Of a stretch of DNA of 64,000 nt, positions 1-64,000 are shown in pieces; within the stretch, counting starts at the first letter, position 1, and each line of letters starts with the position of its first letter. This stretch comes from an uncultured Planctomycetota bacterium (lineage in GTDB: Bacteria; Planctomycetota; Brocadiia; JAADGH01; CAYPFP01). A model generated the notes under the pieces. It did not search any database. It was given only the letters and a program-made list of their open reading frames with translations, and was not told where the DNA came from. Where the stretch lies: the NCBI GenBank assembly GCA_964409935.1, contig CAYPFP010000001.1:30331-94330 (forward strand), written 5' to 3'. Position numbers and translations under genes: made by a program.

Positions 1-321
1 AGGTAAGCGAACATCGAGACTTCCGCCTCGCGGCGGTTAAGCTTGTACTTCTCGACGAAGAACTCCACGATAGCCTGCACCGTGCGCTTGCCGTTGCACT
101 GGTCCCAGACAGCCGTGCCGATCTTGTCGAGGGCCACCTTTTTCTCGTCGGGCATGTTCAGGATCGTCGCCAGGAAGTTGGCCCACCAAGATCTTCTACG
201 AGGGATGGTAATGACGACATTACCCTCATCGTCGCGGCGAACCTTGAGGTTCTTGTTCCGGACGGGCCGCGCCGCCATGGACTGCTCGCGACTAAGGGTC
301 TGCTTTTTTCGACCGAACATC
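1..321 (-). CDS. PqqD-family protein (RiPP recognition element-like), 3' end beyond window edge
   Basis: Reverse-strand translation from ATG at 321 (alt ATG 278) gives ...MAARPVRNKNLKVRRDDEGNVVITIPRRRSWWANFLATILNMPDEKKVALDKIGTAVWDQCNGKRTVQAIVEFFVEKYKLNRREAEVSMFAYL with no stop before position 1; the LDKIGTAVWDQCNGKRTVQAIVEFF...EAEVS..YL pattern matches the PqqD/RRE fold signature. The track ORF 43..681 (+) is its antisense. Confidence 0.55.
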
Positions 322-355
322 GGCACCGTCCGCCACCTGTCCTTGCCCGAACGCA

Positions 356-5127: not shown

Positions 5128-6165
5128 ATGATTCGATGGGGTGTGATTGGAGCTTGCGGAATCGCAGACCGCCGGACCATTCCCGAGGGCTTCATGCCTG
5201 CCGAGAACGCCGAACTGGTCGCCGTCATGGACGTGGACGCCGAACGTCTCGAAGCCGTGGCGAAGAAGTACAACGTTCGCTCGTACGTCAGCTCGTCGGA
5301 TCTGTGCGCGGACCCGGACGTGGACGCCGTGTACATCGCCATCCCCAGCCATCAGCACTGCAAGGAGACGGTGAAGGCGGCGGAGGCCGGCAAGCACGTG
5401 CTGTGCGAGAAGCCGATGGCGATGACGCTGAGCGAGGCCGAGCAGATGATTGACGCCTGCCGCCGCGCCAAGGTGAAGCTGGGGCTGGGCTACATGATGC
5501 GTTTTCATCCGCTTCACGTGAAGCTTAAGGAGATGGTGAAGGCAGGCCAACTGGGCAAGCTGGTGATGGGCCGCGCGCAACTGACCTGCTGGTATCCGCC
5601 CATCAAGGGGGCATGGCGGCAGGACCCGGCCATGGGCGGCGGCGGTTCGTTCATTGACATGGGCACGCACTGCATTGACGTGCTCGAGATGTTCATGGGC
5701 AAGGTGGCCCGGGTGCAGGCCTTCACGAACCGTCTCGTCCAGGGGTATCCCGTGGAGGATACGGCGCTGGTGTCGGTGGCGTTCCGCTCGGGCGGGGTGG
5801 GCGTGGTGGACAATCACTTCAACGTGCCGGACGAAGCGGTTCTGAATGTTCTCGAACTCTACGGTTCGAAGGGCAGCGCGCTGGCGGAGGGGACCATTGG
5901 GCAGATGTCCATGGGCAAGATGATCGCGCGCGTGCAGGCCGAGGCGAAGGGCTACGCGGCCGCCCAGCAGCGCGCGGCGGTGCAGCCCGTCGAGGTCTTC
6001 GGCGAACCGCGGAATATATATCAGGCCGAGGTCGAGGAGTTCTCGCGCGCCATCGAGGAGGATAAGACCCCGCCCATATCGGGCGAAGAGGGGCTTTGGA
6101 ACCTTCGCATCGCCCTGGCCGCCTACAAGTCCGCGCGGACCGGTCAGGTCGTGGAACTGGACTAG
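5128..6165 (+). CDS. Gfo/Idh/MocA family oxidoreductase
   Basis: N-terminal IRWGVIGACGIA Rossmann motif, EKPMAMTLSEAEQM block, 345 aa; ATG verified at 5128. Confidence 0.9.
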   Translation: MIRWGVIGACGIADRRTIPEGFMPAENAELVAVMDVDAERLEAVAKKYNVRSYVSSSDLCADPDVDAVYIAIPSHQHCKETVKAAEAGKHVLCEKPMAMTLSEAEQMIDACRRAKVKLGLGYMMRFHPLHVKLKEMVKAGQLGKLVMGRAQLTCWYPPIKGAWRQDPAMGGGGSFIDMGTHCIDVLEMFMGKVARVQAFTNRLVQGYPVEDTALVSVAFRSGGVGVVDNHFNVPDEAVLNVLELYGSKGSALAEGTIGQMSMGKMIARVQAEAKGYAAAQQRAAVQPVEVFGEPRNIYQAEVEEFSRAIEEDKTPPISGEEGLWNLRIALAAYKSARTGQVVELD

Positions 6166-49842: not shown

Positions 49843-51630
49843 CTAGGTCTCCTTCGTCGTGCCGAACTGCATCGCGTAGAGGTGGCTGTACTCTCCTCGC
49901 TTCGCCAGAAGCTCGTCGTGCGTGCCCATCTCGATGATGCGGCCGTTGCGCAGGACGATGATGCGGTGGGCGAACTTGATGGTGGAGAGGCGATGGGCGA
50001 TGACGAAGGTGGTGCGCCCCTGCATGAGTTTCTGAAGGGCGTCCTGGATGAGTCTTTCGGAGTCGGAGTCGAGCGAGGACGTGGCCTCATCGAGGATGAG
50101 GATTTGGGCGTTCTTCAAAAAAGCGCGGGCGATCGTGACCCTCTGGCGCTGACCGCCGGAGAGCTTTGACCCCATCTCGCCCACTTCGGTCTCATATCCC
50201 CTGGGCAGCGAGGCGATGAAGTCGTGGATGTTCGCCGCTCTGGCCGCCTCGGCGATCTCCTCCGAGGCGGCGCCGGGCTTGCCGTAGCGGATGTTGTCGG
50301 CGAGGGAGCGGTTGAAGAGGAACGGCTGCTGCGAGACGATGGCGATGTGGTCGAGGAGGGAGTGCTGGCGTATCTTGCGCAGGTCGAGGCCGTCAATGGT
50401 GATGGCGCCTTCCTGGGGGTCGCGGAAGCGGGCGATGAGGTCGCACAGGGTGGACTTGCCGGCGCCGCTGTGACCGACGATGGCGACGATCTCGCCGGGC
50501 TTCACGAGCAGGTTGATGCCGCACAGAACGGGGACGGTGTTGTAGGCGAAGGTCACGTTGTCGAAGCGAATGCCCTCGCGCATGAGGGGCATCTCGACGG
50601 CGTCGAGGGCGTCCTGGATGGTGGGGGGCGTGTCTATCAGTTCGAAGATGCGCAGCGCGCCGGGCAACGACTCCATGAGGTTGTTGTAGGCCTTGCTCAG
50701 GCGCTTGACAGGGGCGAACATGCAGGCGGCGGCGGCGATGAAGGTGACGAACTCGCCCGCCGTGAAGTTCAGGCCCAGCGTGCCGGGGTACAGGAGAACG
50801 TACCCGCCGCCGAGGATGATGAGGAAAAGGCCGGCGTTGCCGATGAAGTCCACCGCGCCGTCGGCGATGGCCTTGGCCTTGACGGTCTTCATGACCCTGC
50901 CGAAGTAGCGCTGGTTGGTCTGGCGGAAGTCTTCGGTCTCCGCCGTCTCCATCGCGAAGGCCTTGACGATGCGGATGCCGCTGAACATCTGGTGCATGGC
51001 CTCGGTGATGTCGGACAGGCGTTCGAGGGCGCTGCGCGCATACTTCTTGACGCGCTTGCCCAGCACGCCCATCACGATGCCGACGAAGGGGAAGATGATG
51101 ACGGACGCGATGGAGAGCTGCCAACTCGCCCACAAGGCCACGGTCAGGAAGGCGATGAGGCCGAAGACGGCCTGGAGGATTTCCGAATAGAGGAACTGAA
51201 GGGCGCGGTAAAGGATGGCGATGTCGTTGGTGAGACGCGACATCAGGTCGCCGGCGCGACGGTCTTCGAAGAAGGCCAGGGGCTGCGGCAGCAGCTTGGC
51301 GCACAGCTCGTTGCGGATGTCCATGAGCGCGGACCACAGGACGCGGCCGCCGCCGTATGTCTGGAAGGTGTTGCTCAGGAAGATCACGGGGGCCAGAAGG
51401 ATGAGGTAGATGGCGATGTTGAGCAGGTTGTGGATCGCCTCCGGGCGCGAGGCGGCCTCGAAACCTTTCAGGAGGCTGTTGTCCACCAGGGGTTTGGTGA
51501 GCCACAGCTTGATGCCGTTGGTGGCCGAGTAGGCGACCATGGTTACCAGCGTGAGCAGCACCCACAGCCGGTGCGGCCAGGCATAGCGGTATACGCGAGC
51601 GTAGGTTCGAAGGAATTCGGACTTTATCAT
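49843..51630 (-). CDS. ABC transporter permease/ATP-binding protein (MsbA-like exporter)
   Basis: Six-TM domain then Walker A GHSGAGKST, ABC signature LSGGQRQRVTIARAF, Walker B ILILDEATS. Confidence 0.9.
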   Translation of the reverse strand: MIKSEFLRTYARVYRYAWPHRLWVLLTLVTMVAYSATNGIKLWLTKPLVDNSLLKGFEAASRPEAIHNLLNIAIYLILLAPVIFLSNTFQTYGGGRVLWSALMDIRNELCAKLLPQPLAFFEDRRAGDLMSRLTNDIAILYRALQFLYSEILQAVFGLIAFLTVALWASWQLSIASVIIFPFVGIVMGVLGKRVKKYARSALERLSDITEAMHQMFSGIRIVKAFAMETAETEDFRQTNQRYFGRVMKTVKAKAIADGAVDFIGNAGLFLIILGGGYVLLYPGTLGLNFTAGEFVTFIAAAACMFAPVKRLSKAYNNLMESLPGALRIFELIDTPPTIQDALDAVEMPLMREGIRFDNVTFAYNTVPVLCGINLLVKPGEIVAIVGHSGAGKSTLCDLIARFRDPQEGAITIDGLDLRKIRQHSLLDHIAIVSQQPFLFNRSLADNIRYGKPGAASEEIAEAARAANIHDFIASLPRGYETEVGEMGSKLSGGQRQRVTIARAFLKNAQILILDEATSSLDSDSERLIQDALQKLMQGRTTFVIAHRLSTIKFAHRIIVLRNGRIIEMGTHDELLAKRGEYSHLYAMQFGTTKET

Positions 51631-51683: not shown

Positions 51684-52727
51684 TTACATTGTCTCGAAAG
51701 CGGTTTCGATCATGGCCCGGTAGTTCTCGACGGGCACGTAATAGGTGACGGAGTTGGACGAGCCGAGGCAGTACCCGCCGTCGTAGGCCAGGTCGCGGAT
51801 GTTGGCGCGGGCGAGGGTCCGCACTTCGTCGGGGGCGCCCCGCGAGAGGCGGTCCAACTCGATGTTTCCGGCCAGGCACAGCCGGCCTTCGACGCGCTTT
51901 TTCAACGCGCGGATATCCATGGCTTTAGGTTCGACCGGATGCAGGCCGTTGAAGCCGGCGTTGATGATATCCTCAATGACCGCCGTCAGGTCTCCGTCGG
52001 AGTGGTAGAGGAACGGTATGTCGCGCTGCTGGCAGAGCAGCGACATCTTCCTGTACCACGGGAACATGTATTTGCGCAGGATGGCCGGCGAGACCATCAG
52101 GCCCGTCCCGTAGGCGATGTCGTCGGACATCCACGCCGCGGCCACGCCGGGCAGTTCCAGGGCCTGTTCGAGCGCCCGGAATTGGATGTTGCCGACCTTG
52201 TTGAACAGCCGTTCGACGAGGGCGGGGTTCTCCACGGTGGCCAGGGCGAAGGTTTCGAAGCCCATGAGCATCCACACCGACGTGAAGACCTTGCCGAGGA
52301 TGGCGATGGTGCGCATGTCGGGCGGGAGGAGTTTGGAGACTTCCCGCGCCACGGCGAGGCCGGGGCTTTCCTCGGCGGGCCACTGGAAGCGCTCAAGCTC
52401 CTCTTCGGTCGTGATGACGCCCTTGCCTTCGGCGGCCCACTTCATCTCGACCTCTTCTTCGGAGTAGATGCTGTAGCGGGATCGCTTTCGCAGCGTGGCG
52501 TCGCCGGACAGGACGCCGCCCACCTCCAGGATGCCGAGCGAGATGGGCACGTAGTCGTAGCCGGCCAGAATCCAGAACTCCACCTCGTCCTGCAACGAAG
52601 CGGCGCGTTTGCCGAGGAAGGCGGACTTGACTTGGTTGTCTACGAATAACTCGATAAGGGGGACGCGATCCGGCTTGCCTTCGAGCAGCAGGGCGGCGCG
52701 AAGCCTGGTGAAATCGTTGCGTTTCAT
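51684..52727 (-). CDS. URO-D family protein, paralog 3
   Basis: 347 aa; N-terminal RLRAALLLEGKPDRVPLIELFVDNQV and C-terminal GGYCLGSSNSVTYYVPVENY parallel paralog 1. Confidence 0.8.
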   Translation of the reverse strand: MKRNDFTRLRAALLLEGKPDRVPLIELFVDNQVKSAFLGKRAASLQDEVEFWILAGYDYVPISLGILEVGGVLSGDATLRKRSRYSIYSEEEVEMKWAAEGKGVITTEEELERFQWPAEESPGLAVAREVSKLLPPDMRTIAILGKVFTSVWMLMGFETFALATVENPALVERLFNKVGNIQFRALEQALELPGVAAAWMSDDIAYGTGLMVSPAILRKYMFPWYRKMSLLCQQRDIPFLYHSDGDLTAVIEDIINAGFNGLHPVEPKAMDIRALKKRVEGRLCLAGNIELDRLSRGAPDEVRTLARANIRDLAYDGGYCLGSSNSVTYYVPVENYRAMIETAFETM

Positions 52728-52813
52728 GGGAATCTGTCGCCCTCGTGATCGTCCCGGTTGCGGTGTCGTTCCCCCGCGGGGAAGTTTACGACGCTTGGCG
52801 CGGGTTCCAACAG

Positions 52814-52845
52814 AAAAGGGAGAGGCGCCAGCCTCTCCCTTTTCC
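52814..52845. terminator. bidirectional rho-independent terminator
   Basis: AAAA-GGGAGAGGC-gcca-GCCTCTCCC-TTTTCC; 9-bp GC stem flanked by A4 and T4-5; lies between the URO-D paralog 3 start and the lipoprotein stop. Confidence 0.6.
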
Positions 52846-52898
52846 TTGATGAGCTCGATTGAGCGACTGCGCCATCGAAACGGCCGCCGCAGTGCGAC

Positions 52899-53192
52899 TT
52901 ACTTCTTTTCCGCCGGCTTCTTTTCTTCCGGCTTTGCGGGGGCCGCAGGAGCCGCCGGAGCCGCAGGGGCCGCCGGGGCCGGAGTCGCCGCGGGGGCCGC
53001 CGGGGCCGGAGTCGCCGCGGGGGCCGCCGGGGCCGGAGTCGCCGCGGGGGCCGCCGGGGGCGCCTCAGGCTTGGCTTCCTTCTTCTCAGCCGCCGGCTTC
53101 TTCGGTTCCTTGGCCGGCTTCACTTCCTCACCGCATCCGACGATAAACCCTACGCCAACCGCCAACGTTAGCGCCAGCAACCACTTGTGCAT
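52899..53192 (-). CDS. Pro/Ala-rich tandem-repeat lipoprotein (97 aa)
   Basis: [23 protein letters not shown] lipobox; three-plus copies of the 9-aa repeat TPAPAAPAA encoded by a 27-bp tandem repeat; strong aaaggagg RBS. Confidence 0.6.
52960..53060. repeat. 27-bp tandem repeat (about 3.5 copies) inside the lipoprotein gene
   Basis: The unit ggccggagtcgccgcgggggccgccgg recurs at 52977, 53004, 53031 (period 27). Confidence 0.7.
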
Positions 53193-53259
53193 CGCCTACC
53201 CCTCCTTTCAAGAGTGTATAGGGCCATAAAATGATAGCAGATGCCTTAAACTTGGGAGA

Positions 53260-53288
53260 AGTATAGTATGCCCTGAAGTCGGTGTCAA
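53260..53288 (-). promoter_or_regulatory. near-consensus sigma70 promoter TTGACA-17-TATACT for the lipoprotein gene
   Basis: Minus-strand TTGACA (53288-53283), 17-nt spacer, TATACT (53265-53260); AT-rich surroundings; 67 nt upstream of ATG 53192. Confidence 0.5.
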
Positions 53289-53295
53289 GGCAAAA

Positions 53296-53342
53296 ATTGC
53301 AAAAAACCGACATGCCCGCCGCTCCCTCCGATGGCGGCGGAA
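53296..53342 (-). terminator. candidate terminator after the giant pseudopilin gene
   Basis: Minus-strand hairpin ccgccgc...gcggcgg (53316-53341) followed by ggTTTTTTgcaaTTTTTg. Confidence 0.35.
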
Positions 53343-53373: not shown

Positions 53374-56300
53374 TCAGTATTCGGTCACAAAGCGCGAGGT
53401 TTGGGCCTTTACGCCGTCGGTGACGCCGTCGGCCCCCGGTGTCGGGAGGCCGGTGGCAAGCGGCTGGGCGTTGAGATTGTTGACGATATCGGTTCGCTCG
53501 ACCAGGGCGCGGATGCGGGCCTCAGCCAGTTGGCCGCTGGGGTTGAAGACGCGCCCGCGGGCTACGACGGTGAAGAAGCGCGACTTGATGTCGAGCACGT
53601 TCCAGTACCGCGAGAACCATTCCATGCGCTCGGCGATGTCGTCGGCCAGGTCGTCGTTCAGGTAACCCGCGCCGGTGTCGTCGAAGTCCAGAGGGTTGAA
53701 CCACGATCCGGAGCCGAGGTTGATGGGGTAGTTGTAGGCGCTGTTGTCGGCGCGGCCGCCGTTGCGGATGGCGGTGGTGCCCGTTCGCACGCTCCAATCC
53801 CTCTGATAGACTCTATCCCGAAGGGTCTGGGTGTCCGAATCCGGGCTGACGTTGAACTGTCTTGGGGTCTTCAGGAGGGTGTAGAAGGCGTTGCGGGTGA
53901 AGAAGGGGTCGCCGCGCAGGACCTCGAAGTTGACGCCCAGGCCGAAGCCCTGGGGGGCGATGGGGGCCACGCCCCGGTCGCTGCGCAGGGGGAGTATGAC
54001 GTTGTTCAGCTCCGCGCTGACCGCGTTGGTGTACCGGCAGGAGGTCGGAAGGATCCTTCGGCGGAGTTCGGGGGTTTCGAGATTGATGGTGGCGTTGTCG
54101 CCGGGGGCCGGGGGCGTGCCGCTGCCGGAGAGGCCGATATATCCTGAGAATCCGCAGACGTCGAGGATGTCGCGGTAGGGGCGGTGACGGATGATGTCGG
54201 CGGCCATGGAGGTGGGGAAGACGGCGGCCAGTACGGGCATGGAGGCGGTGTTGATGTTGATCTTCGCCCGCGCGCGGCCGTGGGGCCAGACGGTGGCGAT
54301 CTCGCGCCAGTCGGGCGTTCGTTCGACCCAGGCGTAATTGGTGGTGCTGGCGGTCTGCGGTCTGGGGAAGACGGTGGGCCGCAGGTAGAGAGGCGCGGCG
54401 AAGTTGGTGCGGGCGGTCCACAGGGCGTTGCGCTGGTTCGGGATGGTGGTGTTCAGGACCCACGTCGTGAAGGGCGAGGGTCGGAAGGAGTAGTCCGTGT
54501 TCAGGGTTCCGGCGGCGTAGGTGGCGGTGAGTCCGCCGCTCAGGCCGATGAGGCGGGTGAGGATGTTGTCGTCGTAGTAGCAGGGGCCTCTGTTCTGGCC
54601 GTTGGCCGGGTTTTCCACGAAGAGGCGGGCCACGTCGTTCTCGCCGACGCGCTCTTCGGGCAGGATGGGGGCCATGTTCTTCCAAGGCCCCATCGGGGAA
54701 TGGACGAAGGCCAGCCAGCCGACGCTGGGGAAGGCGTTGTCGAGCACGACGGGGACAGTGCGATTGTCAATGGCCATGCGCAGTTCGACATGGTCCATCC
54801 AGTGGTGGTCGTTCTGGTTGCCGGGCCTTCGGGTGCCCGCGGGCAGGTCGCGGAACCAGGCAGGGGCGGAGGCCATGTCGTCCACGTGTCCGGGATAGAG
54901 GTACTTGCGGCCGAAGACGTTGCCGGCGTCATAGAAATACATGTAATTCTTGTTCCAGTTGCGCAGGCGGCGGCGGCCGGTCTCGACGTCGGGGGGGTCG
55001 TTGGTGGTGGAGGCGGGGTCGGGCCGCCAGAGGTTCCGCTGGCTGCTGCGCCACCAGAGGTTTTGGGACATGTCGTAACTGGCTGCCTGTCGCTGGAACA
55101 GGTTCGCCTTGGTGCTGTTGAAGTCGGGGTCAATCTGAAGCCATGCGGCGTTCATGCCGGCGCGGGCCTGGGGATCGGAGGCGTTGACGGGCATGAAGCG
55201 CTTCATGGAGGCGTTGGCGTGGCCGGCGTTGGGCACGACGGGGGCCGTTTTCTCGATGGCGCAGTAATCATACCGGTCCGTGGCGGCGCTGGCCTTGTCG
55301 CCGGTGGTGATGGCGGCGACCTGGCGGCTGGTGAAGTTCATGCTGGAGGCGCCGGCCCAGAGGTCAATCTCGCCGCCGGCGACCTGGAATTGCAGGGGCT
55401 GTGCGCGGCCGGGGATGGTGGGTCCCCAGATTTCGGAGCGGCCCCACACGGTGACGGGATTGCTCGTGGTTCCCTGATCGCGGTTCCAGAGTCCGAAGAG
55501 TTGGTCAATCTCCCTTATGGGGGAGGGGGGCGTCGTCGTGAAGTTGGACGGGAATTCCATGAACTGGACGGGGTAGTCCTCTTCGCCGACCCGGCCCCAG
55601 CCCACGTTGGAGATCACGTAGCCGGGCGTGGCGGCGTAGTAGTCCGAGACGGCGCCCGCGCCGAAGGTACCGCAATAGGCCGCTTCGCTGAGGGCCACGA
55701 CGTAATAGCCGAAGTTGGTGGGGAACATCCCGTCGGCGGTGGCCGGGGGGATGAAGGTGGTGGCTCTCTGTGCTCCCGCTTTGACGTCATAGAAGAGGGC
55801 GGTTTCGTTTTGGGTGGTCTTGGGGTCGTTGCCCAGCCAGAATCCGGGCCGAAGGGGACGACCGCTTCGGTCGTCGTAGAGGAAGTAATTGTTGACGTCC
55901 ACGAGACTCGGAGTAGGGGTGCGCATGACGAGCTTGAAGGCGAGCAAGCCGCCTGGCGACAGGGCCAGCGGGATGGGTTTCTTGCCGATATTGACCAGTT
56001 CCGCGTAGGGGCAGACGAAACGGAGGCTGTAGAACTTGGCGAACTTGTTGGCGACGCCGCCGGCGGGGTCCCACCGGCTGATGCCGCGGACCCTGATGAC
56101 GAAGCCGACGTTGGGGTCGGCGTCCACCCGGATGGCCATGGACTTGCGGCCGCCTCTGGGGAGGGGCTTGCCGATGCTGGGGATCGTGTTGTCGGGGTAG
56201 GTCACGAAGCCATAGATGTTGTCCACACCGGCGGACTCGTCGGTCAGGTTCACCGTGCCGGTGTTGGCGTCCTTCACCGGGACGTGGAAGCGGCGGAAGT

Positions 56301-59300
56301 TCCTGTCGCCGACGGTGAGGTTGTGGAAACCGGTCGCGGTCGGGTAGTCCAGGCCGGTGGGGGTGAGCAGGACGACGCCGTTGCGTTGGCCGGGCAGGCT
56401 GCTGCCCATGTCGGTGGCGGGGAAGCTGACGGCCAGGCTGGCGCCCTTGGGGAAGCCGTCCGGTTCGGTGCCCGTGGCGCCGACATCGTAGGATTCGCCG
56501 TAGGCCATGACGACGTAGGCCCCGCGGGGGACGCCCTTGATGCGCCACTGGCCGGTCACCTTTGCGTCCACGGGGGTGACGGGGGGAGGATTGGTTGCCG
56601 GGTTGGGCGCGCGGACGTTGAGGATGAACTCGTTGGGCGTGGCGCCCGGCTCCCACTTGGCCTCCAGGCTGAGGGGGTCGGCGAGGGCGGGCAGGAAACG
56701 AGGGGGATCTTCCGCCGCCGTGTAGCTGGCATCCACCGTTACCTCCGACGTGGGGACCGTTCGGGTCTTGCTCCTGTCGGAGCCGTGTATTTCGGGGGCG
56801 ACCATGACTTCGTTGAGGTGCACGCCCTCGACGCCGAAGATGTCCACATTCCCCGTTTGGAGCCGCTGCTGGTAGTCAGGCCAGTTCAGAGCGGTTTCGA
56901 GGTTGGGGTACGATGTGACCAGCATGGCGGGGACGGGGAAGGTGTAGTTGGAGGCGTTGTTGTCCTGGTCCTGGAAGTCCACGATGTTGGCCCACATCTG
57001 GTCGCGCAGGATGCGGCCAAGCGTGGCGACGGGGTCGGTGGTGGTGTCCGTGGCGTCATAGGATGCCGGCTGGCCGACGAGGGTGTAGGGCCTGGCGATG
57101 CCGAGGGGCTGGAAGCTGGGGTCGGATTCGGGGACGGGGGGGACGTAAACGCCGTCGCCGGAGGATTGGTCCGTGGGGGCGCAGCGCATGGCGGGGAAGA
57201 AATACTGGTTGCTGCCCAGGCGCAGGGCGATGGTGTCCACATAACCGGCGTTGCTGTATTCGAGGCCGCCCGTGATCCGGCCGGCGCCGAAGGCGCGGCG
57301 GAAGGCGCGTTTCAGCCGGGCCACCTTCTCGGCGCCGTTGAGGGGCCTGGTGTCCTCTTCCGGGGGGTTGGCGCCGCCGATCCAACTGGTGGGCGGGTCG
57401 TACTCGCCCTGCTGGACGCGGGCGGGGTAAGGAGGGTTGGAGAAGGTGCGGGTGACCGAAAGGCTGGAGTCGGTGGCGTTCTGGGAGACCACGATGCCGT
57501 TAATGGCGTTGCTCTGGTCGGCGCGCCGCCAGCCGTTTTGAGAGCGGGGGATGTCAATGCGGCCATTGTTGTCGTTGTCCATCTGGTCGGAATGCCAGAG
57601 GTCCACGTTGATGTTCACCTTGCCGGTATCGTGGTCGGCGACGGAGACGGAGATGTCTTCGCGCACGATGCTGAAGACGCGGGAGGCCTCGGCATAGAGG
57701 TCGCCGATGTCCAGGATGGGCGTGGTGGGGTTGCCGCTGGCGTCGAGGCGGGTGGGGTCGAAGTCGCCGTTGACGTTGACGGCGACGTTGCCGCTGTTGT
57801 TGAGGATGTAACCGACGCCGAGCCGCTGGCCGATGGTGGCCTGTCCTCTGCTGCCGACCCAGGCGTCATTGGTGGGGAAGGGGGCGGCGGCGCGGCCGCC
57901 GGTAGCGCCCCAGACGAGGGCGTCAATCATCTGCTCGATGGCGGTGTAGGGGCGGTCGTCGCCGCGGGGGTAGACGGGGTCGAACTCGCGGTCGTCGTCA
58001 ATGCCCTCGATGGTTCCGCTGGCGCCGAGGGGGTAAGGCTCGTCCACGAATTGACTGGTAGTGCGGTCGTGCGGCTCCCAAAACCGTTGGGAAGGGTTCG
58101 CGCCCATCATGAAGTTGGGCACGCCGTCGTTGAAGCCCACGTTGAAATTGACGTTGGCGTTGGCGGTGGGGAATCCGATGCCCTTGTCGAGGGTGTTGGC
58201 GCCGACGACGGCGTTCCAGTTGCCGTTGTCGTCCAGGCCGTTCTCGCGGACCAGGAGGCGGCGCCTGTTGTAGATGTCCCAATCCGTCAACGTTCCGGCG
58301 GCGGGGACGTCGTGGTCGCTGTCGTCATCCACGTTGCGGCGGCCGGGGAAGAGGTCCTGGCCGTAGCGGTAGAGGATGATGGCGCGGGCGAAGCCGCGGG
58401 CCTGGGTGACGGTGAAGCCGTAGGCCTCGAAGAAGCGCACGAGGCTGACGCGGAAGGAGTCGAGCTTCATGGTGGCGTCGAGGGCGCCGTTGGCGGCGTA
58501 GAAGGCGGGGTCCCACAGGCTGCCGTGGGCGTTGAGGTTGATCTTTCCTCCCTCGTCGAGGATCATGCCCTCCACGTCGTTGCCGTCGCTGAGTTCAAGG
58601 TCGGGCAGGGCGCTGGAGAGCGCGCCGCCGGTGGTCCGATATCGGCCATCGGAGTCCTCGTCGTCGTCCTGGGCGTTGCCGCCCAGGCGGCCGCCGGCGT
58701 AGCTGACGAAGTTGGTGCGGGGTGCGCTGGCCGTTGGCACGGGGTTTCCGGTCCAAAGGGGGTAGTAACCGTCGGCGGTCTGGCCGTCGTCGTCGGTGTC
58801 ATTGGCGATATTGCGGGTGTAAACGCCGCCGGTCAGGTTGGCGTCCACGCGTTTGAGGCCCAGGTTGCCGGCGCCCATGTCGCGCAGGTCGCCGAAGCCC
58901 TCCTCCCAGACGCGGCCGTCGTTGTCCGAGGTCACGTTCTGGGTCTGGCCGTTAACATTGTCCAGAATATAGTTCCAGCTGGTTGGCGGTACGCGCGCTA
59001 GCCATATCCAGGGTTCGACTCGGCCGGCGGCGACGGTGGTGTTGGTCTGGTAAACGTATTGGAAACTCTTGCCGGCTTGGTTTTCGTTGCCCATCTGGTC
59101 GCCGCTGAAGAGGTCGTCGTTGGCGAGATTGTTGTAGTAGGAGGCGTCCCAGAAGTTGCGGGTGCGGGCGGTGTCCTTGTAGGTCATGGCCGCTGTGCGG
59201 TTGAGAGTTCTGTTGAAGTAGCTGCGGCCGTCGGGAATTCCGGGGTCTTCGTTGGGAAAGCCGTCGCCGTCGGAGTCGGCGAGCATGTTGTTGTCTTCGT

Positions 59301-59976
59301 CCACCTGGCCGTCGCGGTCGTCGTCTACGTTGGGGGCGCCGGGGCGGCCGTCCTGGTCGGGGGTGAAGCCGTCCTCGTCCACGAGGGGAGTCAGGCCGAG
59401 GGCGTTGCGCTGGTCGCGGTCCTCGTCATCGTCGGAGGCGTTGCCGCCGGGGTTGTAGCCGGGGGTGCCGGCGGTGTAGCCGTTGATGTCCTCGTCTATT
59501 TTGCCGTCGCCGTCGTCGTCAATGCCCTGGATGCCGGGATAGCCGTCGGCATTGTCGTCGCCGGGGGGGTCTTCGTTGATGTGCCAGTTGAGGTCGTAGC
59601 AGGCGCGGCGGTTGCCGTCGTTGTAGACGAGTTTGTGATAGGGGTTGGCGGCGGGCTGGTTGTTGTTGCCCTGTGAGCGATTCCAGGTGGGCTGAAGCAC
59701 GCCGCTCGTGTTGGTGGGGCAGGGCGGCGTGAACCAGGCCTCGGAGAAGTCGTCGAAGCGGGGGTCGTCCTTGGACAGGATCTCGATGGCGGCCTGAAGG
59801 CCTTCCCTGGCGGCGAACTCGGCGATCTGGCGGTCGGTCAGCGTGCGGCTGCCGGCCAGTTCGGTGCGGGAGATGAGGGCGAAGGTGACGCCCATGAGCG
59901 CCAGCACGGCCAGTACGCCGACGGCGACGATCAGGATGGAACCTCGTTGGCGGGGTCCGTCGGAATTGTAGTTCAT
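53374..59976 (-). CDS. giant GspK-like minor pseudopilin (about 2200 aa) with thrombospondin-type-3-like Asp-rich Ca-binding repeats
   Basis: N-terminus RQRG|SILIVAVGVLAVLALMGVTFALISRTELAGSRTLTDRQIAEFAAREGLQAAIEIL matches the GspK/T2SS-K N-terminal helix (Gly at -1, no Glu5); DEGGKINLN motif typical of the GspK family; DDDGDGKIDEDINGY, DDRDGQVDEDNN, DSDGDGFPNEDPG, DDDEDSDGRY repeats; ggaagga RBS before ATG 59976. Confidence 0.8.
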   Translation of the reverse strand: MNYNSDGPRQRGSILIVAVGVLAVLALMGVTFALISRTELAGSRTLTDRQIAEFAAREGLQAAIEILSKDDPRFDDFSEAWFTPPCPTNTSGVLQPTWNRSQGNNNQPAANPYHKLVYNDGNRRACYDLNWHINEDPPGDDNADGYPGIQGIDDDGDGKIDEDINGYTAGTPGYNPGGNASDDDEDRDQRNALGLTPLVDEDGFTPDQDGRPGAPNVDDDRDGQVDEDNNMLADSDGDGFPNEDPGIPDGRSYFNRTLNRTAAMTYKDTARTRNFWDASYYNNLANDDLFSGDQMGNENQAGKSFQYVYQTNTTVAAGRVEPWIWLARVPPTSWNYILDNVNGQTQNVTSDNDGRVWEEGFGDLRDMGAGNLGLKRVDANLTGGVYTRNIANDTDDDGQTADGYYPLWTGNPVPTASAPRTNFVSYAGGRLGGNAQDDDEDSDGRYRTTGGALSSALPDLELSDGNDVEGMILDEGGKINLNAHGSLWDPAFYAANGALDATMKLDSFRVSLVRFFEAYGFTVTQARGFARAIILYRYGQDLFPGRRNVDDDSDHDVPAAGTLTDWDIYNRRRLLVRENGLDDNGNWNAVVGANTLDKGIGFPTANANVNFNVGFNDGVPNFMMGANPSQRFWEPHDRTTSQFVDEPYPLGASGTIEGIDDDREFDPVYPRGDDRPYTAIEQMIDALVWGATGGRAAAPFPTNDAWVGSRGQATIGQRLGVGYILNNSGNVAVNVNGDFDPTRLDASGNPTTPILDIGDLYAEASRVFSIVREDISVSVADHDTGKVNINVDLWHSDQMDNDNNGRIDIPRSQNGWRRADQSNAINGIVVSQNATDSSLSVTRTFSNPPYPARVQQGEYDPPTSWIGGANPPEEDTRPLNGAEKVARLKRAFRRAFGAGRITGGLEYSNAGYVDTIALRLGSNQYFFPAMRCAPTDQSSGDGVYVPPVPESDPSFQPLGIARPYTLVGQPASYDATDTTTDPVATLGRILRDQMWANIVDFQDQDNNASNYTFPVPAMLVTSYPNLETALNWPDYQQRLQTGNVDIFGVEGVHLNEVMVAPEIHGSDRSKTRTVPTSEVTVDASYTAAEDPPRFLPALADPLSLEAKWEPGATPNEFILNVRAPNPATNPPPVTPVDAKVTGQWRIKGVPRGAYVVMAYGESYDVGATGTEPDGFPKGASLAVSFPATDMGSSLPGQRNGVVLLTPTGLDYPTATGFHNLTVGDRNFRRFHVPVKDANTGTVNLTDESAGVDNIYGFVTYPDNTIPSIGKPLPRGGRKSMAIRVDADPNVGFVIRVRGISRWDPAGGVANKFAKFYSLRFVCPYAELVNIGKKPIPLALSPGGLLAFKLVMRTPTPSLVDVNNYFLYDDRSGRPLRPGFWLGNDPKTTQNETALFYDVKAGAQRATTFIPPATADGMFPTNFGYYVVALSEAAYCGTFGAGAVSDYYAATPGYVISNVGWGRVGEEDYPVQFMEFPSNFTTTPPSPIREIDQLFGLWNRDQGTTSNPVTVWGRSEIWGPTIPGRAQPLQFQVAGGEIDLWAGASSMNFTSRQVAAITTGDKASAATDRYDYCAIEKTAPVVPNAGHANASMKRFMPVNASDPQARAGMNAAWLQIDPDFNSTKANLFQRQAASYDMSQNLWWRSSQRNLWRPDPASTTNDPPDVETGRRRLRNWNKNYMYFYDAGNVFGRKYLYPGHVDDMASAPAWFRDLPAGTRRPGNQNDHHWMDHVELRMAIDNRTVPVVLDNAFPSVGWLAFVHSPMGPWKNMAPILPEERVGENDVARLFVENPANGQNRGPCYYDDNILTRLIGLSGGLTATYAAGTLNTDYSFRPSPFTTWVLNTTIPNQRNALWTARTNFAAPLYLRPTVFPRPQTASTTNYAWVERTPDWREIATVWPHGRARAKININTASMPVLAAVFPTSMAADIIRHRPYRDILDVCGFSGYIGLSGSGTPPAPGDNATINLETPELRRRILPTSCRYTNAVSAELNNVILPLRSDRGVAPIAPQGFGLGVNFEVLRGDPFFTRNAFYTLLKTPRQFNVSPDSDTQTLRDRVYQRDWSVRTGTTAIRNGGRADNSAYNYPINLGSGSWFNPLDFDDTGAGYLNDDLADDIAERMEWFSRYWNVLDIKSRFFTVVARGRVFNPSGQLAEARIRALVERTDIVNNLNAQPLATGLPTPGADGVTDGVKAQTSRFVTEY
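59240..59640 (-). repeat. region encoding Asp-rich calcium-binding (TSP3-like) repeats in the giant gene
   Basis: Clusters of gacgac/gatgac codons on the coding strand; protein motifs DxDxDGxxD. Confidence 0.5.
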
Positions 59977-60009
59977 CAGACTTGTTCCTTCCAGGGGCGG
60001 TAACAAACA

Positions 60010-60543: not shown

Positions 60544-61578
60544 TCACAAATCCCCCCTCCGGGGTCCCAGCGCCTTGATGTAGGAGGGGATGAAGATGAC
60601 CTGGCGGAAGACTATGCCGACCTCGTCCACGCGGAAGTCGGCCTGCTTCAGGCCGTCGCCGGGGTAGTCGTCGGTTCGACCGGGAGCGAGGAACTGGGCT
60701 CTGGGCCGGGGTTCGTCGCGTCCGTCGGTGATTTCCGTGGAGTAAAAGTCCGTCCATTCGTATTCGTTGGGGTCGGCGATGCGCAGGGTGACCTGGACGG
60801 CGGCGGGGATGCGGGCGCGAGCGGCCTGGTCGCTGTCGAAGGCCCAGGACGTGTTGGCTCCGGCGCCGGAACGATTCACCAGGTTGTAGGCCATGCCTCG
60901 CGTCGGCGGCCAGAAGTCGAACCAGTGCGTTTCTCTCTCGCCGCTCAGCCAGACTCGCTGGTCGGAGTTCTGATTGAAGCCGTCCACCTGGTAGTACCGC
61001 AACTGGAATTCGCGCACGTTGAAGCCCAGGGCGCTGAAGTCAAAGCGGGGCGAGGGGTTCGCGGGGGTGGGGTCGTGGACGAGGACGGCGGCAAGGTCGG
61101 CCGCCGTGGTCGGCCCGGTGAGGAGTCGGCGCGAGACGCCTTTTTCCAGGACGTGGCGGCCGGTGACGCAGTAGACGACCTCGACGGGGGTGCCGAAGTT
61201 GGAGGATTCGGTGGTGGTGCGGAACCAGAGCATGTCGGGGTAGCAGTAGGGGACGCTGGTCCTGCTGGTGTCGCACAGGATGTTGAAGAACGGGACGCGC
61301 GGCACCCAGGTGCTGGAGTAGGTGTAGGCGCGGTTCCAGCCGATGAAGACGTTGCCGCTCTCGTCCACGACGGCGCCTTGCAGGTCGCGCTGCATGGTGT
61401 CAACGATGGCGCGGACCGTCTGGTAGATGGCGATGCGGGCGTCGGCGCTCGAGAGCATGTTTCCGGCGCTGCTGAAGATGGTGTAGAGCATGATGGTGAT
61501 GATGGTCATGAGGCCGGCGGCGACGGTGAGTTCGACGAGGGTGAACGCCGCGGCGGCCTTTGATTTGAGTTTCTTCAT
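60544..61578 (-). CDS. prepilin-type N-terminal cleavage/methylation domain protein (GspJ-like minor pseudopilin, 344 aa)
   Basis: KAAAAFTLVELTVAAGLMTIITIML N-terminus (FTLxE core, Ala at -1). Confidence 0.75.
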   Translation of the reverse strand: MKKLKSKAAAAFTLVELTVAAGLMTIITIMLYTIFSSAGNMLSSADARIAIYQTVRAIVDTMQRDLQGAVVDESGNVFIGWNRAYTYSSTWVPRVPFFNILCDTSRTSVPYCYPDMLWFRTTTESSNFGTPVEVVYCVTGRHVLEKGVSRRLLTGPTTAADLAAVLVHDPTPANPSPRFDFSALGFNVREFQLRYYQVDGFNQNSDQRVWLSGERETHWFDFWPPTRGMAYNLVNRSGAGANTSWAFDSDQAARARIPAAVQVTLRIADPNEYEWTDFYSTEITDGRDEPRPRAQFLAPGRTDDYPGDGLKQADFRVDEVGIVFRQVIFIPSYIKALGPRRGDL

Positions 61579-61643: not shown

Positions 61644-63017
61644 TCAGAAGAACGACGAGATGGTGCTTGTCGAGACGCCGATGAGCGTCTGCGGCGACTG
61701 GTCCTGTATCGTCCGCATATGGTTATAGTTGAGGAAGACCAGCACGTCCACGCGGGCGCCGAGGGGAACGGAGGCTTCCTTGCCCCTGCGGGCCGGTTCG
61801 GGGGAGAAGGCGTCGCGGGGGATGGGGATCGGCGCTATGGCCCAGGCGTTGACGTTTGCGTTGACGTCTTCGGAATTGCTCATGATGATGGCGTAGGAAT
61901 ACGAGGAGCCGGCGATGGTGGCTTCGGGGTCGTTGAGCCAGTCTTTGCGGTTGGCGCCGAAGGGGATGGTCTGGTCCGGTTCCGCGTTGCCTGCGCCGAA
62001 GTTCGAGGCGGTGGGCCTGCCGGTCACGGCGTCGGGAGGGCCGAAGGGGAAGACGGCGCTGACTTCCCTGGCGCCCAGGATGACGAAGCTGTCGTTGCGG
62101 CGCACGCGTCCGTTCAGGGCGTCGCCGGTGTTGAGCCAGTTGTTGTTGGCCGGCTCGGCGGCGCTGAAAATGCCGCGGGTGACGTTGACGCTGCTGGCGG
62201 TGTTGGAGGTGACGGGGAGCACCTTGCCCTTGGCCAGGCCGCTGGTGAAGACGACGAAGAAACGGGCGTCCACGCCGGCGGCGGCGCCGGTTCTGGAGAA
62301 CTCGTTGGGGGTCCAGTTGACATAGCCGGTGGTTCCGAAGTTATCGTCCGCCGCGTCCATCCGCTTGGCCGTGATGCTGTTGCCGGAGGCGGAGACGACG
62401 CGCGCCATGCGGGGACTGCCGGGGGAGCGCGGCAAGGCCCACTTGGTGATGACGAAGCACGAGCTGTTGTCCAGCGGCATGGGGCGGTTGAGAGGGTCGA
62501 GGAAGGGAGAGCTGACCGTGACATGGAAGGAGGCCGCATAGGCCATGGAGGTGCTGTCAATCCTCCGGACCTGGCCGGCGCCCGTGCCGGAGGTCACCAG
62601 CAGGTAGTGGCCCGCCCGGCTGGTGTACATGAAGGGGTACTGGGCCTGCGCGCGCCAGTCCACGCCCGCTCCGGAGGCGGCGCCGGGGCTGATCTCGCAG
62701 TAGACGGTGGTGGGGGTCTGCGTGATGGCGGTGGAGTTGGCGGCGACGCGGTACCAGGGATTTCGCAGGCGGTAGTCGAAGACCTCGCTGGTGTTCACCA
62801 TGTAGTTGACTTGCGCGAAGGCCGTTTGCGAGGCCAGGTAGACGACCTTGTTGTTGATGGCGCGCGTGGTGGCATCGAGTCCCACGGGGAACAGGGACAT
62901 GACGCCCACGATGCCCAGGACCATGATGAACATGGCGATGAGGATTTCGGTGAGCGTAAAGCCCGCGGCCGCCGTGGTTTTCGCTTGTCGGTTCATTGGC
63001 ATCTTTCGTTCTTGCAT
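61644..63017 (-). CDS. prepilin-type N-terminal cleavage/methylation domain protein (expanded minor pseudopilin, 457 aa)
   Basis: TAAAGFTLTEILIAMFIMVLGIVGV is a canonical G|FTLxE prepilin signal. Confidence 0.8.
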   Translation of the reverse strand: MQERKMPMNRQAKTTAAAGFTLTEILIAMFIMVLGIVGVMSLFPVGLDATTRAINNKVVYLASQTAFAQVNYMVNTSEVFDYRLRNPWYRVAANSTAITQTPTTVYCEISPGAASGAGVDWRAQAQYPFMYTSRAGHYLLVTSGTGAGQVRRIDSTSMAYAASFHVTVSSPFLDPLNRPMPLDNSSCFVITKWALPRSPGSPRMARVVSASGNSITAKRMDAADDNFGTTGYVNWTPNEFSRTGAAAGVDARFFVVFTSGLAKGKVLPVTSNTASSVNVTRGIFSAAEPANNNWLNTGDALNGRVRRNDSFVILGAREVSAVFPFGPPDAVTGRPTASNFGAGNAEPDQTIPFGANRKDWLNDPEATIAGSSYSYAIIMSNSEDVNANVNAWAIAPIPIPRDAFSPEPARRGKEASVPLGARVDVLVFLNYNHMRTIQDQSPQTLIGVSTSTISSFF

Positions 63018-63072: not shown

Positions 63073-63894
63073 TCACATCACCTGCACGACCCCGCCGGTC
63101 TGGGGGAAGAAGATGATCCATGCGCCGCCGGCGAAGATGGGCGCGCCGGTCGAATGGGGGCGGTTGGGGGTGTACTTTCCGCGTTCCACGACGAGGAACG
63201 CCCGCCGCCCGTTGTTTTCGAACTGGATGCTCGTGACGTACATGATCTCGTCGTCAATGAGGATGTAGCCCGTGGCCTCGATGCTGTGGCTGGTGCTGAT
63301 CTCGATGCGCGTCTGGAAGGCGTCTACATCGCCCAGGAGCGCGCCGACCGTGCCGCCGCCGACGGATGTGACGATGCCGCCGGTGGGCTTTGCGTAGCGA
63401 GAGGCGGCCTCCGCCTTGACATCGGTGACGTACTTGCCCGTGCCGTCCTTGTCGAAGGTGAGGACCATGACGGGGCGGGCGCCGTTGGAGTAGCCGGCCT
63501 GGATGGCGGCGGTGTTGTCGCCGATGGCTCTGGAGAGATTGACGTCGCGTCTCCAGTGGTTATCGGGGACGCGGAAGGTGATGCCTTCGGGGAGGACGAC
63601 GGGGGCGTCCACCGGCACGTATTGAGAGTCGGTCACGACGCAGAACCGTTCGCCATGGTAGACGATGAGAGAAGCGGTGGAGTTGGTGGCGATGGCGTGA
63701 TGGCGGGCCTGGAGCGTGGCGGCGTGGAGCTGGCGTGCCGCATGGCGCTCCCGGCTGCGGCTGATCATGGGGCTGGTCGCCACGATGGAGACGAGGGCGA
63801 GCAGGATGACGATGCCGATGACGGTGAGCATCTCGGCCAGCGTAAAGGCTTGGTCGCGTCGGCGGTACGGCATCGCGATTCGATCCATTTTCAT
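63073..63894 (-). CDS. GspH-like pseudopilin
   Basis: gcaggagg RBS then ATG AAA ATG; RRRDQAFTLAEMLTVIGIVILLALVSIV...SRERHAARQLHAATLQARHHAIA resembles GspH. Confidence 0.75.
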   Translation of the reverse strand: MKMDRIAMPYRRRDQAFTLAEMLTVIGIVILLALVSIVATSPMISRSRERHAARQLHAATLQARHHAIATNSTASLIVYHGERFCVVTDSQYVPVDAPVVLPEGITFRVPDNHWRRDVNLSRAIGDNTAAIQAGYSNGARPVMVLTFDKDGTGKYVTDVKAEAASRYAKPTGGIVTSVGGGTVGALLGDVDAFQTRIEISTSHSIEATGYILIDDEIMYVTSIQFENNGRRAFLVVERGKYTPNRPHSTGAPIFAGGAWIIFFPQTGGVVQVM

Positions 63895-63908
63895 TGCAGC
63901 CTCCTGCA

Positions 63909-64000
63909 TTATCTGCTTCCCCAGTTATTTACATCATCGGCGGCTTCGCCGAGCATATTCAGTTCGGGGGCGTCGTCCACCGCGCCGTTCATGTCGTCGT
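63909..64000 (-). CDS. 3' end of an upstream gene of the same operon (partial)
   Basis: In-frame ...DDMNGAVDDAPELNMLGEAADDVNNWGSR then TAA (63911-63909), followed directly by the RBS of the GspH-like gene. Confidence 0.35.
   Translation of the reverse strand, partial: DDMNGAVDDAPELNMLGEAADDVNNWGSR

Follow-up and report, generated by a model that had tools for sequence, protein, structure and literature searches.

A small Pro/Ala-repeat lipoprotein gene with a conserved expression cassette and a length-variable tail of no predicted fold

Within a 64,000-nucleotide stretch of contig CAYPFP010000001.1 (hereafter, the window), we characterized a small gene on the minus strand (open reading frame (ORF) 52899..53192, ATG start) that encodes a predicted lipoprotein of 97 amino acids (aa) with a tail rich in proline and alanine. 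We found that this gene lies in a complete small transcription unit spanning 53321 to 52806 on the minus strand, that its expression and export signals recur in relatives while the tails of the encoded proteins vary, and that short repeats in the coding sequence of a close relative change in copy number, in frame, in natural populations. Taken as a whole package, we consider it somewhat better than an even bet that the product is an abundant, lipid-anchored, disordered spacer or brush of the cell envelope, hydrated in the manner of polyethylene glycol (PEG). The descriptive part of this reading is much safer than the functional part: the ORF and its signals, the conservation of these signals, the family, the length polymorphism, and the lack of a predicted fold are shown, whereas lipidation, high expression, the membrane that carries the protein, and the spacer or brush role are inferred. 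Feature coordinates are collected in Table 1.

The first-pass annotation of this DNA had described the product as a 97-aa lipoprotein with the lipobox IVGC, and our analysis agrees. We applied a PROSITE PS51257-style regular expression, comprising an uncharged h-region followed by [LIVMFWSTAG](2)-[LIVMFYSTAGCQ]-[AGS]-C, with the cysteine at positions 15-35. The window protein matches this rule with a lysine at position 3, an uncharged h-region, and the sequence F-I-V-G-C, which places the cysteine at position 20. The same expression matched every relative then present in our DNA set, relatives found later show the same ..G-C by inspection, and all relatives have an arginine or a lysine at position 3. 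Cys20 is thus predicted to be the lipidated residue. The tail that would follow it comprises a block with 7 lysines and 6 glutamates, whose start, G(G)EE..GP, is weakly conserved in relatives, an uncharged block of 43 aa (25 Ala, 15 Pro, and 3 Thr; 35% Pro), and a lysine-rich end; in all, 21 of the 77 tail residues are proline (~27%).

The uncharged block contains a tandem repeat at the DNA level. Tandem Repeats Finder (TRF) reported a period of 27 bp with 4.6 copies and 91% matches at 52936-53059, within which positions 52966-53059 form an exact period-27 tract (94 bp, 3.5 copies) that encodes AATPAPAAP three times. The longest period-27 run amounts to 67 bases, as compared with at most 10 bases in 2000 shuffles of the gene, and the perfect 27-bp repeat noted in the first-pass annotation is therefore upheld.

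The mature protein shows no predicted fold. In an AlphaFold2 model built from a three-sequence alignment, residues 2-19 form the sole helix, which corresponds to the signal peptide, and the tail has no secondary structure, with block-mean pLDDT values of 46-69. A Pfam-A hmmscan of the window protein returned no family at E <= 0.01, and sequence searches of NCBIfam and the PDB gave nothing above cut-off; the weak matches from these three sources, for example to E2 acetyltransferase linkers, were judged to be compositional and were set aside. Engineered Pro/Ala (P/A) polymers with 25-35% proline are highly soluble, expanded, near-ideal, and strongly hydrated random chains that behave like PEG (PMC5813227), and the 35% proline of the window core falls within this composition. 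The likeness of the core to synthetic PAS or P/A polypeptides ('PASylation') is one of composition and concerns physical behavior only: those polymers are engineered materials, whereas the window chain is a short natural one with a lipid anchor and charged blocks at its ends. Disordered segments next to the lipid are common in this class of proteins, and one preprint reports an intrinsically disordered N-terminal linker in about half of the E. coli outer-membrane lipoproteins (bioRxiv 10.1101/2021.01.05.425367); here, unlike in those Gram-negative lipoproteins, no domain follows the linker.

We looked for relatives at both the protein and the DNA level. The exact window protein is absent from a collection of 15 billion proteins. 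Using the C-terminus of the giant GspK-like protein encoded just upstream as an anchor, we recovered two metagenome contigs with the same gene layout, in which a 64-aa ORF (L063, 73% identity) and a 65-aa ORF reading MYRWLIALALSVGVGFVVMGCGGEEQGPTTRPPKAPKAAEEKKPGEEKPAEAPKAPEAPKAPEKK (L062, 53% identity) lie between the giant gene and a gene of the uroporphyrinogen decarboxylase/methyltransferase-like (URO-D) family. A profile of the N-terminal half, run against 5.8 billion proteins, retrieved P0008, which is identical to the L063 product, and P0009 (75 aa), whose contig carries, in order, the giant gene (at least 1855 aa), the lipoprotein gene, the URO-D gene, and an ABC gene. When we searched 1.84 billion cluster representatives exhaustively with a profile, 12 matches came up, among which P0008, P0021 (which looks frameshifted), P0022 (58 aa), P0023 (79 aa), and P0027 (67 aa) have the signature signal peptide M[FY]RW[LI][LI]AL.L..G[VL]G[FY]....GC. 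For the family as a whole, the consensus is M[FYH][RK]W[LI][LI]AL.L..G[VL]G[FY]....GC. The family thus comprises about eight distinct sequences, all from one narrow lineage, and a scan of the window and 73 fetched loci revealed no further copies beyond those listed here. Among five lineages, signal-peptide differences at codon positions 1, 2, and 3 number 42, 28, and 63, respectively, and are commonest at the third position.

The tails of family members are far less uniform. They measure 37-77 aa, contain 0-3 hydrophobic residues, and are slightly basic (net charge +1 to +4); those of the window protein, L062, L063, P0009, and P0022 are P/A-rich, and those of P0023 and P0027 are T/E/K-rich. 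A Lys-Lys pair occurs among the last six residues in 10/10 family sequences tabulated; the terminal residue is lysine in five of seven distinct lineages and serine (P0022, ...KKGGS) or glutamine (P0023, ...TKKQ) in the other two. This is a small, lineage-specific family, contained in no described family, with a conserved expression and export cassette and freely evolving tails.

Conservation of the non-coding signals was apparent in seven cassettes from six contigs. The promoter elements CTTGACA and ACTATA(C/G)T are invariant, separated by a spacer of 17-18 nt that is free in sequence, and GGAAAGGAGGG..GCGATG, which covers the Shine-Dalgarno (SD) sequence and the start context, is kept in the cassette alignments. 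Also kept are the AT-rich tract, blocks of the 5' untranslated region (UTR), the signal peptide, blocks of the 3'UTR, and the terminator stem and tail. Among orthologs, the stretch from the giant gene to the promoter could not be aligned, and in-frame indels abound in the region encoding the mature protein.

The promoter is one of three matches in the window, counting both strands, that agree with the sigma-70 consensus at 11/12 positions, which bears out its earlier description as among the best of the window. The other two are TTGACA-16-TACAAT at 42335-42362 on the minus strand, ~100 nt upstream of a PEPCK gene (40343..42235), and TTGACA-17-TATTAT at 5013-5041 on the plus strand, ~90 nt upstream of a GFO/IDH/MocA oxidoreductase gene (5128..6165). 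Each of the three is well placed upstream of a gene and correctly oriented, and the organism therefore evidently uses such promoters. The predicted transcription start of the lipoprotein gene, as deduced from the promoter position, lies near 53253. The promoter sits in the sole AT-rich patch of the neighborhood (GC 0.43 at 53200-53299 versus a window mean of 0.64), as had been noted earlier, and the T-tract just upstream of the -35 hexamer may act as an UP element. Despite a genomic GC content of 64%, a T/A-rich tract occupies the equivalent place in six of the seven cassettes; it is cut to a short TTTT in L070. Translation would start from a strong ribosome-binding site, again in line with the first-pass annotation: an 8-nt SD sequence, AAAGGAGG, at 53201-53208, at a distance of 8 nt from the ATG. 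Promoter strength was judged from consensus match and conservation only; near-consensus signals conserved across the seven cassettes are the best available proxy for strong expression, and the gene is probably strongly expressed.

Downstream of the stop codon, the 3'UTR blocks GACGCAATACGGCGGCCGT and CAGTCG[CT]TCAA are kept in orthologs (the window, L063:762-811, and L073:397-455). In L073 they also follow the P/A-type gene, and the first block is recognizable within 36 nt after the T/E/K-type gene of L069. RNAalifold proposed a small hairpin in the 3'UTR with little covariation and found no covariation-supported structure in the 5'UTR, which also has no Rfam family; sub-threshold Rfam matches fell only on the terminator hairpin. 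On both UTRs, RNAalifold thus showed conserved sequence blocks and no convincing covariation, and we claim neither a riboswitch nor a small RNA. The 3'UTR could still be an mRNA-stability element or the source of a 3'UTR-derived small RNA. The unit ends in an intrinsic terminator whose stem, with its A4 and T4 flanks at 52814-52843, has a predicted folding energy of -28.5 kcal/mol (z = -5.1); four lineages share the same stem and TTTTCTGTTG tail but differ in the loop. The terminator scanner did not list this hairpin at 52814-52843, apparently because its T-run pairs with the A-run and was counted as stem, leaving too few T in the tail. The first-pass annotation had seen here (52814-52845) a clean bidirectional terminator; the terminator itself stands, but both flanking genes are on the minus strand and termination is needed in one direction only. 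A second candidate hairpin, at the upstream end of the unit, could terminate the giant gene. It is not conserved in orthologs, this intergenic part having large indels, and its T-run merges into the AT-rich tract before the lipoprotein promoter.

Direct evidence for repeat slippage came from the L063 ortholog cluster, in which we found three alleles, of 61 aa (one AAP fewer), 64 aa, and 66 aa (an extra EK). The contigs L064, L071, and L072, which derive from different samples, are ~99% identical across 950 bp, and indels in these 950 bp are limited to a 9-bp unit (GGCTCCGGC), present in three or in two copies, and a 6-bp unit that we read as GAGAAG duplicated within the Lys/Glu-rich end. These alleles are direct evidence of in-frame repeat slippage in natural populations of a close relative. 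Between lineages, protein lengths are 58, 64, 65, 75, and 97 aa, and the window tail is the longest because of its own 27-bp expansion; since the 27-bp copies are still identical, this expansion is recent. Slipped-strand variation in copy number, which had been predicted for the window gene, was thus seen in the 9-bp and 6-bp units of ortholog alleles and in the 58-97 aa range among orthologs.

In the reading that we favor, of a hydrated envelope spacer or brush, the gene is an autonomous monocistronic unit in which an AT-rich tract, a sigma-70 promoter, a ~60-nt 5'UTR, an 8-nt SD sequence, 97 codons, and an intrinsic terminator most likely bring about high-level transcription and translation. 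The product would be exported by the Sec route, lipidated on Cys20, and cleaved by signal peptidase II to yield a mature protein of 78 residues, that is, the lipidated cysteine and a 77-residue tail. This tail, with no fold and three blocks (a K/E-charged segment, a Pro/Ala chain, and a Lys-rich end), would form an abundant hydrophilic spacer or brush, anchored by its lipid to one face of a membrane in a diderm envelope, with an activity set by length, solvation, and charge and not by specific sequence. The 27-bp repeats, and the 9-bp and 6-bp repeats elsewhere, would expand and contract in frame by slipped-strand mispairing, and tail length would differ between strains and lineages because of these changes. 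A cassette and an export signal that selection holds fixed around an exported polymer that is nearly free to vary point to a function based on physical properties and not on sequence.

Several considerations weigh against this reading. The strength attributed to the promoter is that of a consensus match and its conservation, and spacer or brush is a physical description under which a function is only proposed. P/A character is not family-wide, given the T/E/K tails, and what members share is a tail that is hydrophilic, disordered, and slightly basic. The G-G-E-E..G-P residues after the cysteine and the Lys-rich end could mark specific interactions. Because the family is small and confined to one narrow lineage, part of its non-coding conservation stems from short divergence times. 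As for location, one survey of envelope tethering links the Lol pathway to Gracilicutes and reports OmpM from Armatimonadetes (bioRxiv 10.1101/2021.05.31.446380); in a Terrabacteria-type diderm that lacks Lol, as suggested there for that clade, the protein might remain on the inner membrane, a location that would be favored if the weak taxonomic hint from the URO-D gene (see below) is right.

We also examined the genes around the lipoprotein gene. Its ORF starts 181 nt downstream of the giant GspK-like gene (53374..60006, minus strand, 2210 aa), confirming the adjacency to a giant pseudopilin gene reported in the first-pass annotation. The giant protein has a pseudopilin-like N-terminal hydrophobic segment and a match to type II secretion system (T2SS) protein K at residues 1916-1955 that scores 22.8 bits against a Pfam cut-off of 24.2. 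Very few relatives of it exist in the large protein collection, where its last 500 residues gave one protein match at E <= 0.001. Asp-Gly repeats (DDDGDGKIDED, DDDRDGQVDED), similar to calcium-binding loops, abound in an N-terminal region of the protein. The gene of the 23S rRNA-intervening sequence protein family, located between the pseudopilin genes and the giant gene, has a GC content at third codon positions of 0.66, compared with 0.87-0.90 for its neighbors.

The order giant gene, lipoprotein, URO-D, ABC is kept in four lineages (the window, L062, L063/L064, and the P0009 contig). These four syntenic cases are close relatives, and the shared position after the giant gene is for that reason attributed to inherited gene order. 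Elsewhere, a family member follows an unrelated protein with a weak F5/8-type-C match (L070) or precedes an FGGY kinase gene (P0027 contig), and L068 has a sulfatase gene after its ortholog of the giant gene (50% identity), the 6 kb of downstream DNA on that contig containing no family member. The position after the pseudopilin genes is, from these comparisons of gene order, best explained as inherited and not as operon membership.

The URO-D gene itself was of no use as a synteny anchor for the context question, as it led only to loci in Armatimonadota metagenome-assembled genomes, with 53-60% identity and no synteny. These best database matches of the URO-D gene give a rough and weak hint that the source lineage may lie in or near that phylum. 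It is one of three paralogous URO-D-family genes within 10 kb (42356-43552 (+), 46576-47847 (+), and 51684-52727 (-)), which stand among polysaccharide-degrading and sugar oxidoreductase genes. Farther away, at 27972-39328 on the plus strand, three AsmA/YhdP/DUF748-type proteins (1479, 483, and 1046 aa) are encoded with a TPR protein between them, a set whose family membership suggests inter-membrane lipid transport in a diderm envelope.

One contig carries two members of the family. L073:1-977 (ENA ERZ27247850:k141_1465414) holds two cassettes in tandem, each with its own TTGACA-17-TATACT promoter and SD sequence; the ATG of the P/A-type gene lies at 186 and that of the T/E/K-type gene at 807, the latter gene running off the contig. 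An nhmmer DNA profile derived from the seven cassettes, which it therefore matches by construction, covered both copies over the full profile length with 160-172 bits. In the P/A-type copy the reading frame shifts at a (GA)4 tract directly after ...GGGEEPEKGGP, and the other frame (232..396) reads REKPAKTETGPTKETAPTPVPAPPPAAPAPAKPAGK*, followed by the conserved 3'UTR and terminator. This frameshift could be a sequencing error or phase variation by dinucleotide slippage.

A search with the full-length protein was swamped by P/A-rich words and returned only small lookalike lipoproteins and SecG with a P/A tail. The lookalikes (P0001-P0007, P0015-P0020, and P0025) are 63-72 aa long and have the same architecture and a KK end, with repeat-number variants of 63, 68, and 72 aa. 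Their loci (L001:10001-10198, L002:10001-10192, and L003:4493-4684) share a conserved context of sigma-54 two-component genes, a 130-144-aa ORF, the lipoprotein gene, and then genes of a radical-SAM lysine-aminomutase-like and an ATP-grasp protein; the L002 and L003 copies of the lookalike gene overlap the upstream ORF by 4 bp and are therefore operonic. We rejected the lookalikes as orthologs because of their different contexts and treated them as a convergent or, at best, very distant class; profile-profile scores from a signal peptide and a low-complexity tail are uninterpretable. The design of a lipobox, a K/E block, a P/A block, and a ...KK end seems to recur in unrelated contexts, by distant homology or by convergence.

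Table 1. Positions of the features of the lipoprotein transcription unit and of neighboring genes in the window
Feature	Position	Strand	Basis or remark
5-bp hairpin and T-run (CGGCGGGCATGTCG + GTTTTTTGCA), candidate terminator of the giant GspK-like gene	53308..53321	minus	terminator scan
AT-rich T-tract GTTTTTTGCAATTTTTG, UP-element-like, just upstream of the -35 hexamer	53291..53307	minus	read from sequence
Sigma-70-type promoter TTGACA-17-TATACT, 11/12 positions	53260..53288	minus	promoter scan
5'UTR, ~60 nt, conserved blocks GCATTTT..GGC and ACTCTnGAAAGGAGGGGTAGGCG	53193..53253	minus	alignments
Predicted signal peptide, residues 1-19, ends F-I-V-G before C	53136..53192	minus	lipobox rule
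Cys20 codon, predicted diacylglyceryl site and mature N-terminus	53133..53135	minus	lipobox rule; Cys invariant in all family members
Charged block of mature protein, 23 residues, 7 K + 6 E	53064..53132	minus	composition
Pro/Ala block with 27-bp tandem repeat	52935..53063	minus	TRF and composition; shorter or different in orthologs
Lys-rich C-terminal block, 11 residues, net +2, ends Lys-Lys (...EKK)	52902..52934	minus	composition
Stop codon of the lipoprotein ORF	52899-52901	minus	
3'UTR, conserved blocks GxCGCAxTxCGGCGGCCGT and CAGTCG[CT]TCAA	52844..52898	minus	alignments
Intrinsic terminator, stem GGGAGAGGC/GCCTCTCCC, 4-nt loop, then UUUUCUGUUGG	52806..52843	minus	folding
URO-D-family gene	51684..52727	minus	downstream of lipoprotein gene
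ABC exporter gene	49843..51630	minus	downstream of URO-D gene
23S rRNA-intervening sequence protein family gene, 136 aa	60040..60450	minus	PF05635, E 1.4e-33
Upstream ORF, third of three	60544..61578	minus	
Upstream ORF	61644..63017	minus	weak prepilin N-methylation motif match
Upstream ORF	63073..63909	minus	weak prepilin N-methylation motif match

That the ORF is not a gene at all, either as a chance ORF in GC-rich repetitive DNA or because the true product is an antisense ORF (52609..53229, plus strand, 206 aa), strikes us as barely credible. High-GC, low-complexity DNA does stay open in several frames, and codon-position statistics alone do not separate the sense from the antisense ORF because the two have their third codon positions in common. 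However, the promoter, SD sequence, ATG, lipobox, and terminator all point along the minus strand and are kept in seven cassettes, the signal peptide is conserved at the protein level, and length differences among intact alleles are always multiples of 3. The antisense ORF has no signals of its own and different limits at every locus, starting within the URO-D gene in the window and crossing the promoter into the giant gene in L063. Given the orientation of the signals and their conservation, we take the minus-strand lipoprotein gene as real; it is, on this reading of the DNA, genuine and not a shadow ORF of GC-rich sequence. Accepting the gene, we asked whether it serves the neighboring pseudopilin or T2SS-like machine, for example as a pilotin-like or spacer lipoprotein acting with the giant GspK-like protein. 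Its place directly downstream of the giant gene in the four syntenic lineages favors such a role, as does the existence of T2SS-associated envelope proteins with variable linkers and KK ends, such as OutB (PMC12274547), but the gene is monocistronic with its own promoter and terminator, and the unrelated URO-D and ABC genes are just as syntenic. Family members also occur away from pilus genes (L070, the P0027 contig, and L073), and the L068 ortholog of the giant gene has a sulfatase gene next to it and no family copy within 6 kb downstream. Unlike the T2SS pilotins (PulS/OutS/GspS and AspS), the window protein matches no pilotin or secretin-binding family in Pfam (E <= 0.01) or NCBIfam and has no predicted fold, and no secretin gene was identified among the window ORFs scanned. 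The pilus-system link suggested in the first-pass annotation was not supported, nothing in the data requires it, and we regard an accessory role of this kind as very unlikely. The chance is slimmer still that the protein is a small partner-binding lipoprotein of the LptM (YifL) type, whose lipidated N-terminus and nearby residues would dock into an envelope machine, leaving the tail dispensable. The activity of LptM depends on its lipidated N-terminal part. LptM is described as a small lipoprotein subunit of the lipopolysaccharide translocon (PMC10567701). The parallel is that the only conserved mature residues here (G-G-E-E..G-P) directly follow the cysteine and the rest of the tail drifts freely. 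Yet the NCBIfam LptM model NF047847 matched only the relative P0023, at 10.8 bits against a cut-off of 27.7 (E 0.4), the Lys-rich end is kept in all members, and very high expression, for which the gene looks designed, would suit a structural component more than an assembly factor present in sub-stoichiometric amounts.

The other alternatives accept an abundant envelope protein and differ on what its tail does. In one, the protein belongs to a family of envelope or surface coat proteins of varying size, comparable to Neisseria Lip/H.8 or Mycoplasma Vlp/Vsa; the coat would shield the cell from phages, predators, or enzymes, and changes in repeat length and the diversity of paralogs would be selected and not neutral. 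We hold this to be unlikely. In Mycoplasma, the Vlp, Vsa, and Vpma paralogs share a 5' expression region and a lipoprotein signal peptide and carry low-complexity tails of in-frame tandem repeats that vary in number. Neisseria Lip is a small lipoprotein made almost wholly of repeats, whose number differs between strains and whose physiological role is still unclear. The pentapeptide AAEAP is a repeat motif carried by the lipoproteins Lip/H.8 and Laz (PMC3916388), and H.8 antigen isolated from gonococci is a proteolipid rich in Ala and Pro, without aromatic or sulfur-containing residues (PMC2188499). As in the Mycoplasma systems, a common promoter, 5' region, and signal peptide here precede different repetitive tails in paralogs, in tandem in L073, in-frame size polymorphism exists within a population (61, 64, and 66 aa), and one allele is frameshifted at the (GA)4 tract. 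As in Lip/H.8, the mature part of a lipoprotein consists of Ala/Pro-rich repeats, a shared architecture that does not prove common ancestry. Among 5.8 and 1.84 billion proteins searched, we found only short lineage-specific relatives and low-complexity lookalikes; no sequence relationship to the Neisseria proteins was detected, and no direct comparison with a Lip sequence was made. The differences are considerable, however. The unit here is the nonapeptide AATPAPAAP flanked by K/E-charged blocks, AAEAP is absent from the 97 aa, and relatives have T/E/K tails; Neisseria is a host-adapted Betaproteobacterium, whereas these are uncultured, free-living sediment-type organisms. With respect to Mycoplasma, the organism here is walled and diderm, there is no homology, and at most two paralogs occur together. 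No phase-variation device is visible in the promoter, where we saw neither an invertible element nor a long homopolymer in the spacers and where hexamers and spacing are kept. The frameshifted allele was seen once, on one short metagenome contig, and might reflect an error; neutral slippage would produce length variation as well; and surface exposure may be unlikely if the lineage has no sorting route for outer-membrane lipoproteins. A different role for the tail is that of an Lpp-like envelope tether, in which the lipid would anchor the protein in one membrane, the C-terminal Lys-Lys would be joined to peptidoglycan stem peptides by an L,D-transpeptidase or would bind wall polymers electrostatically, and the flexible Pro/Ala chain would stand in for the Lpp coiled coil as a spacer with its length tuned by slippage. 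The protein shares with Lpp a small size, a lipobox, and an apparently highly expressed design, it ends in ...EKK, a KK pair falls within the last six residues family-wide, with a terminal lysine in 5/7 lineages, and KK is likewise the ending of the lookalikes from other lineages. Lpp (..YKK) and the T2SS protein OutB (..TKK), whose linker length differs between close species, are bound to peptidoglycan by their C-terminal lysine in Dickeya dadantii, and the 'Lpp box' tolerates many substitutions, the C-terminal lysine being necessary and sufficient for L,D-transpeptidase-mediated attachment (PMC12274547). However, over 20% of the periplasmic proteins and lipoproteins of E. coli have a C-terminal lysine (PMC12274547), and with tails that are ~20% lysine a terminal K is consequently weak evidence for a tether. 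Two members (P0022 and P0023) lack it, AlphaFold2 predicts no helix or coiled coil outside the signal peptide, in keeping with a tail that is ~27% proline, and the LPP family (PF04728) was not matched in Pfam-A at E <= 0.01 or above cut-off in NCBIfam. No YkuD-type L,D-transpeptidase gene was seen among the scanned ORFs of the 64-kb window, Lpp homologues occur only in some Gammaproteobacteria, and OmpM is present in Armatimonadetes-type diderms (bioRxiv 10.1101/2021.05.31.446380). We accordingly rate a tether as quite unlikely. Decidedly unlikely is its more specific form, in which an OmpM-type diderm without Lpp would use this abundant lipoprotein as an analogue of Braun's lipoprotein, fixed to peptidoglycan by Lys-Lys, covalently through an L,D-transpeptidase or electrostatically, with a PEG-like Pro/Ala chain in place of the coiled coil and slippage retuning the envelope spacing, possibly in step with the pseudopilus machine.

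If the favored reading of a hydrated spacer or brush is true, this protein would be a natural 'PEGylated lipid', a lipid anchor bearing a solvated Pro/Ala polymer, produced in quantity by an uncultured diderm lineage and given its length by an unstable DNA repeat. Domain databases do not register the family, which adds to the short list of tail-only repeat lipoproteins, here outside host-associated bacteria; its closest analogues are Neisseria Lip/H.8 and the Vlp-type lipoproteins of Mycoplasma. Its conserved promoter, UTRs, and terminator could serve as a strong expression cassette for the lineage and the repeat as a strain marker, although the value of both is modest. Moreover, the Lys-Lys end, if it is a site of peptidoglycan attachment, would bear on how the envelope is organized in non-proteobacterial diderms.

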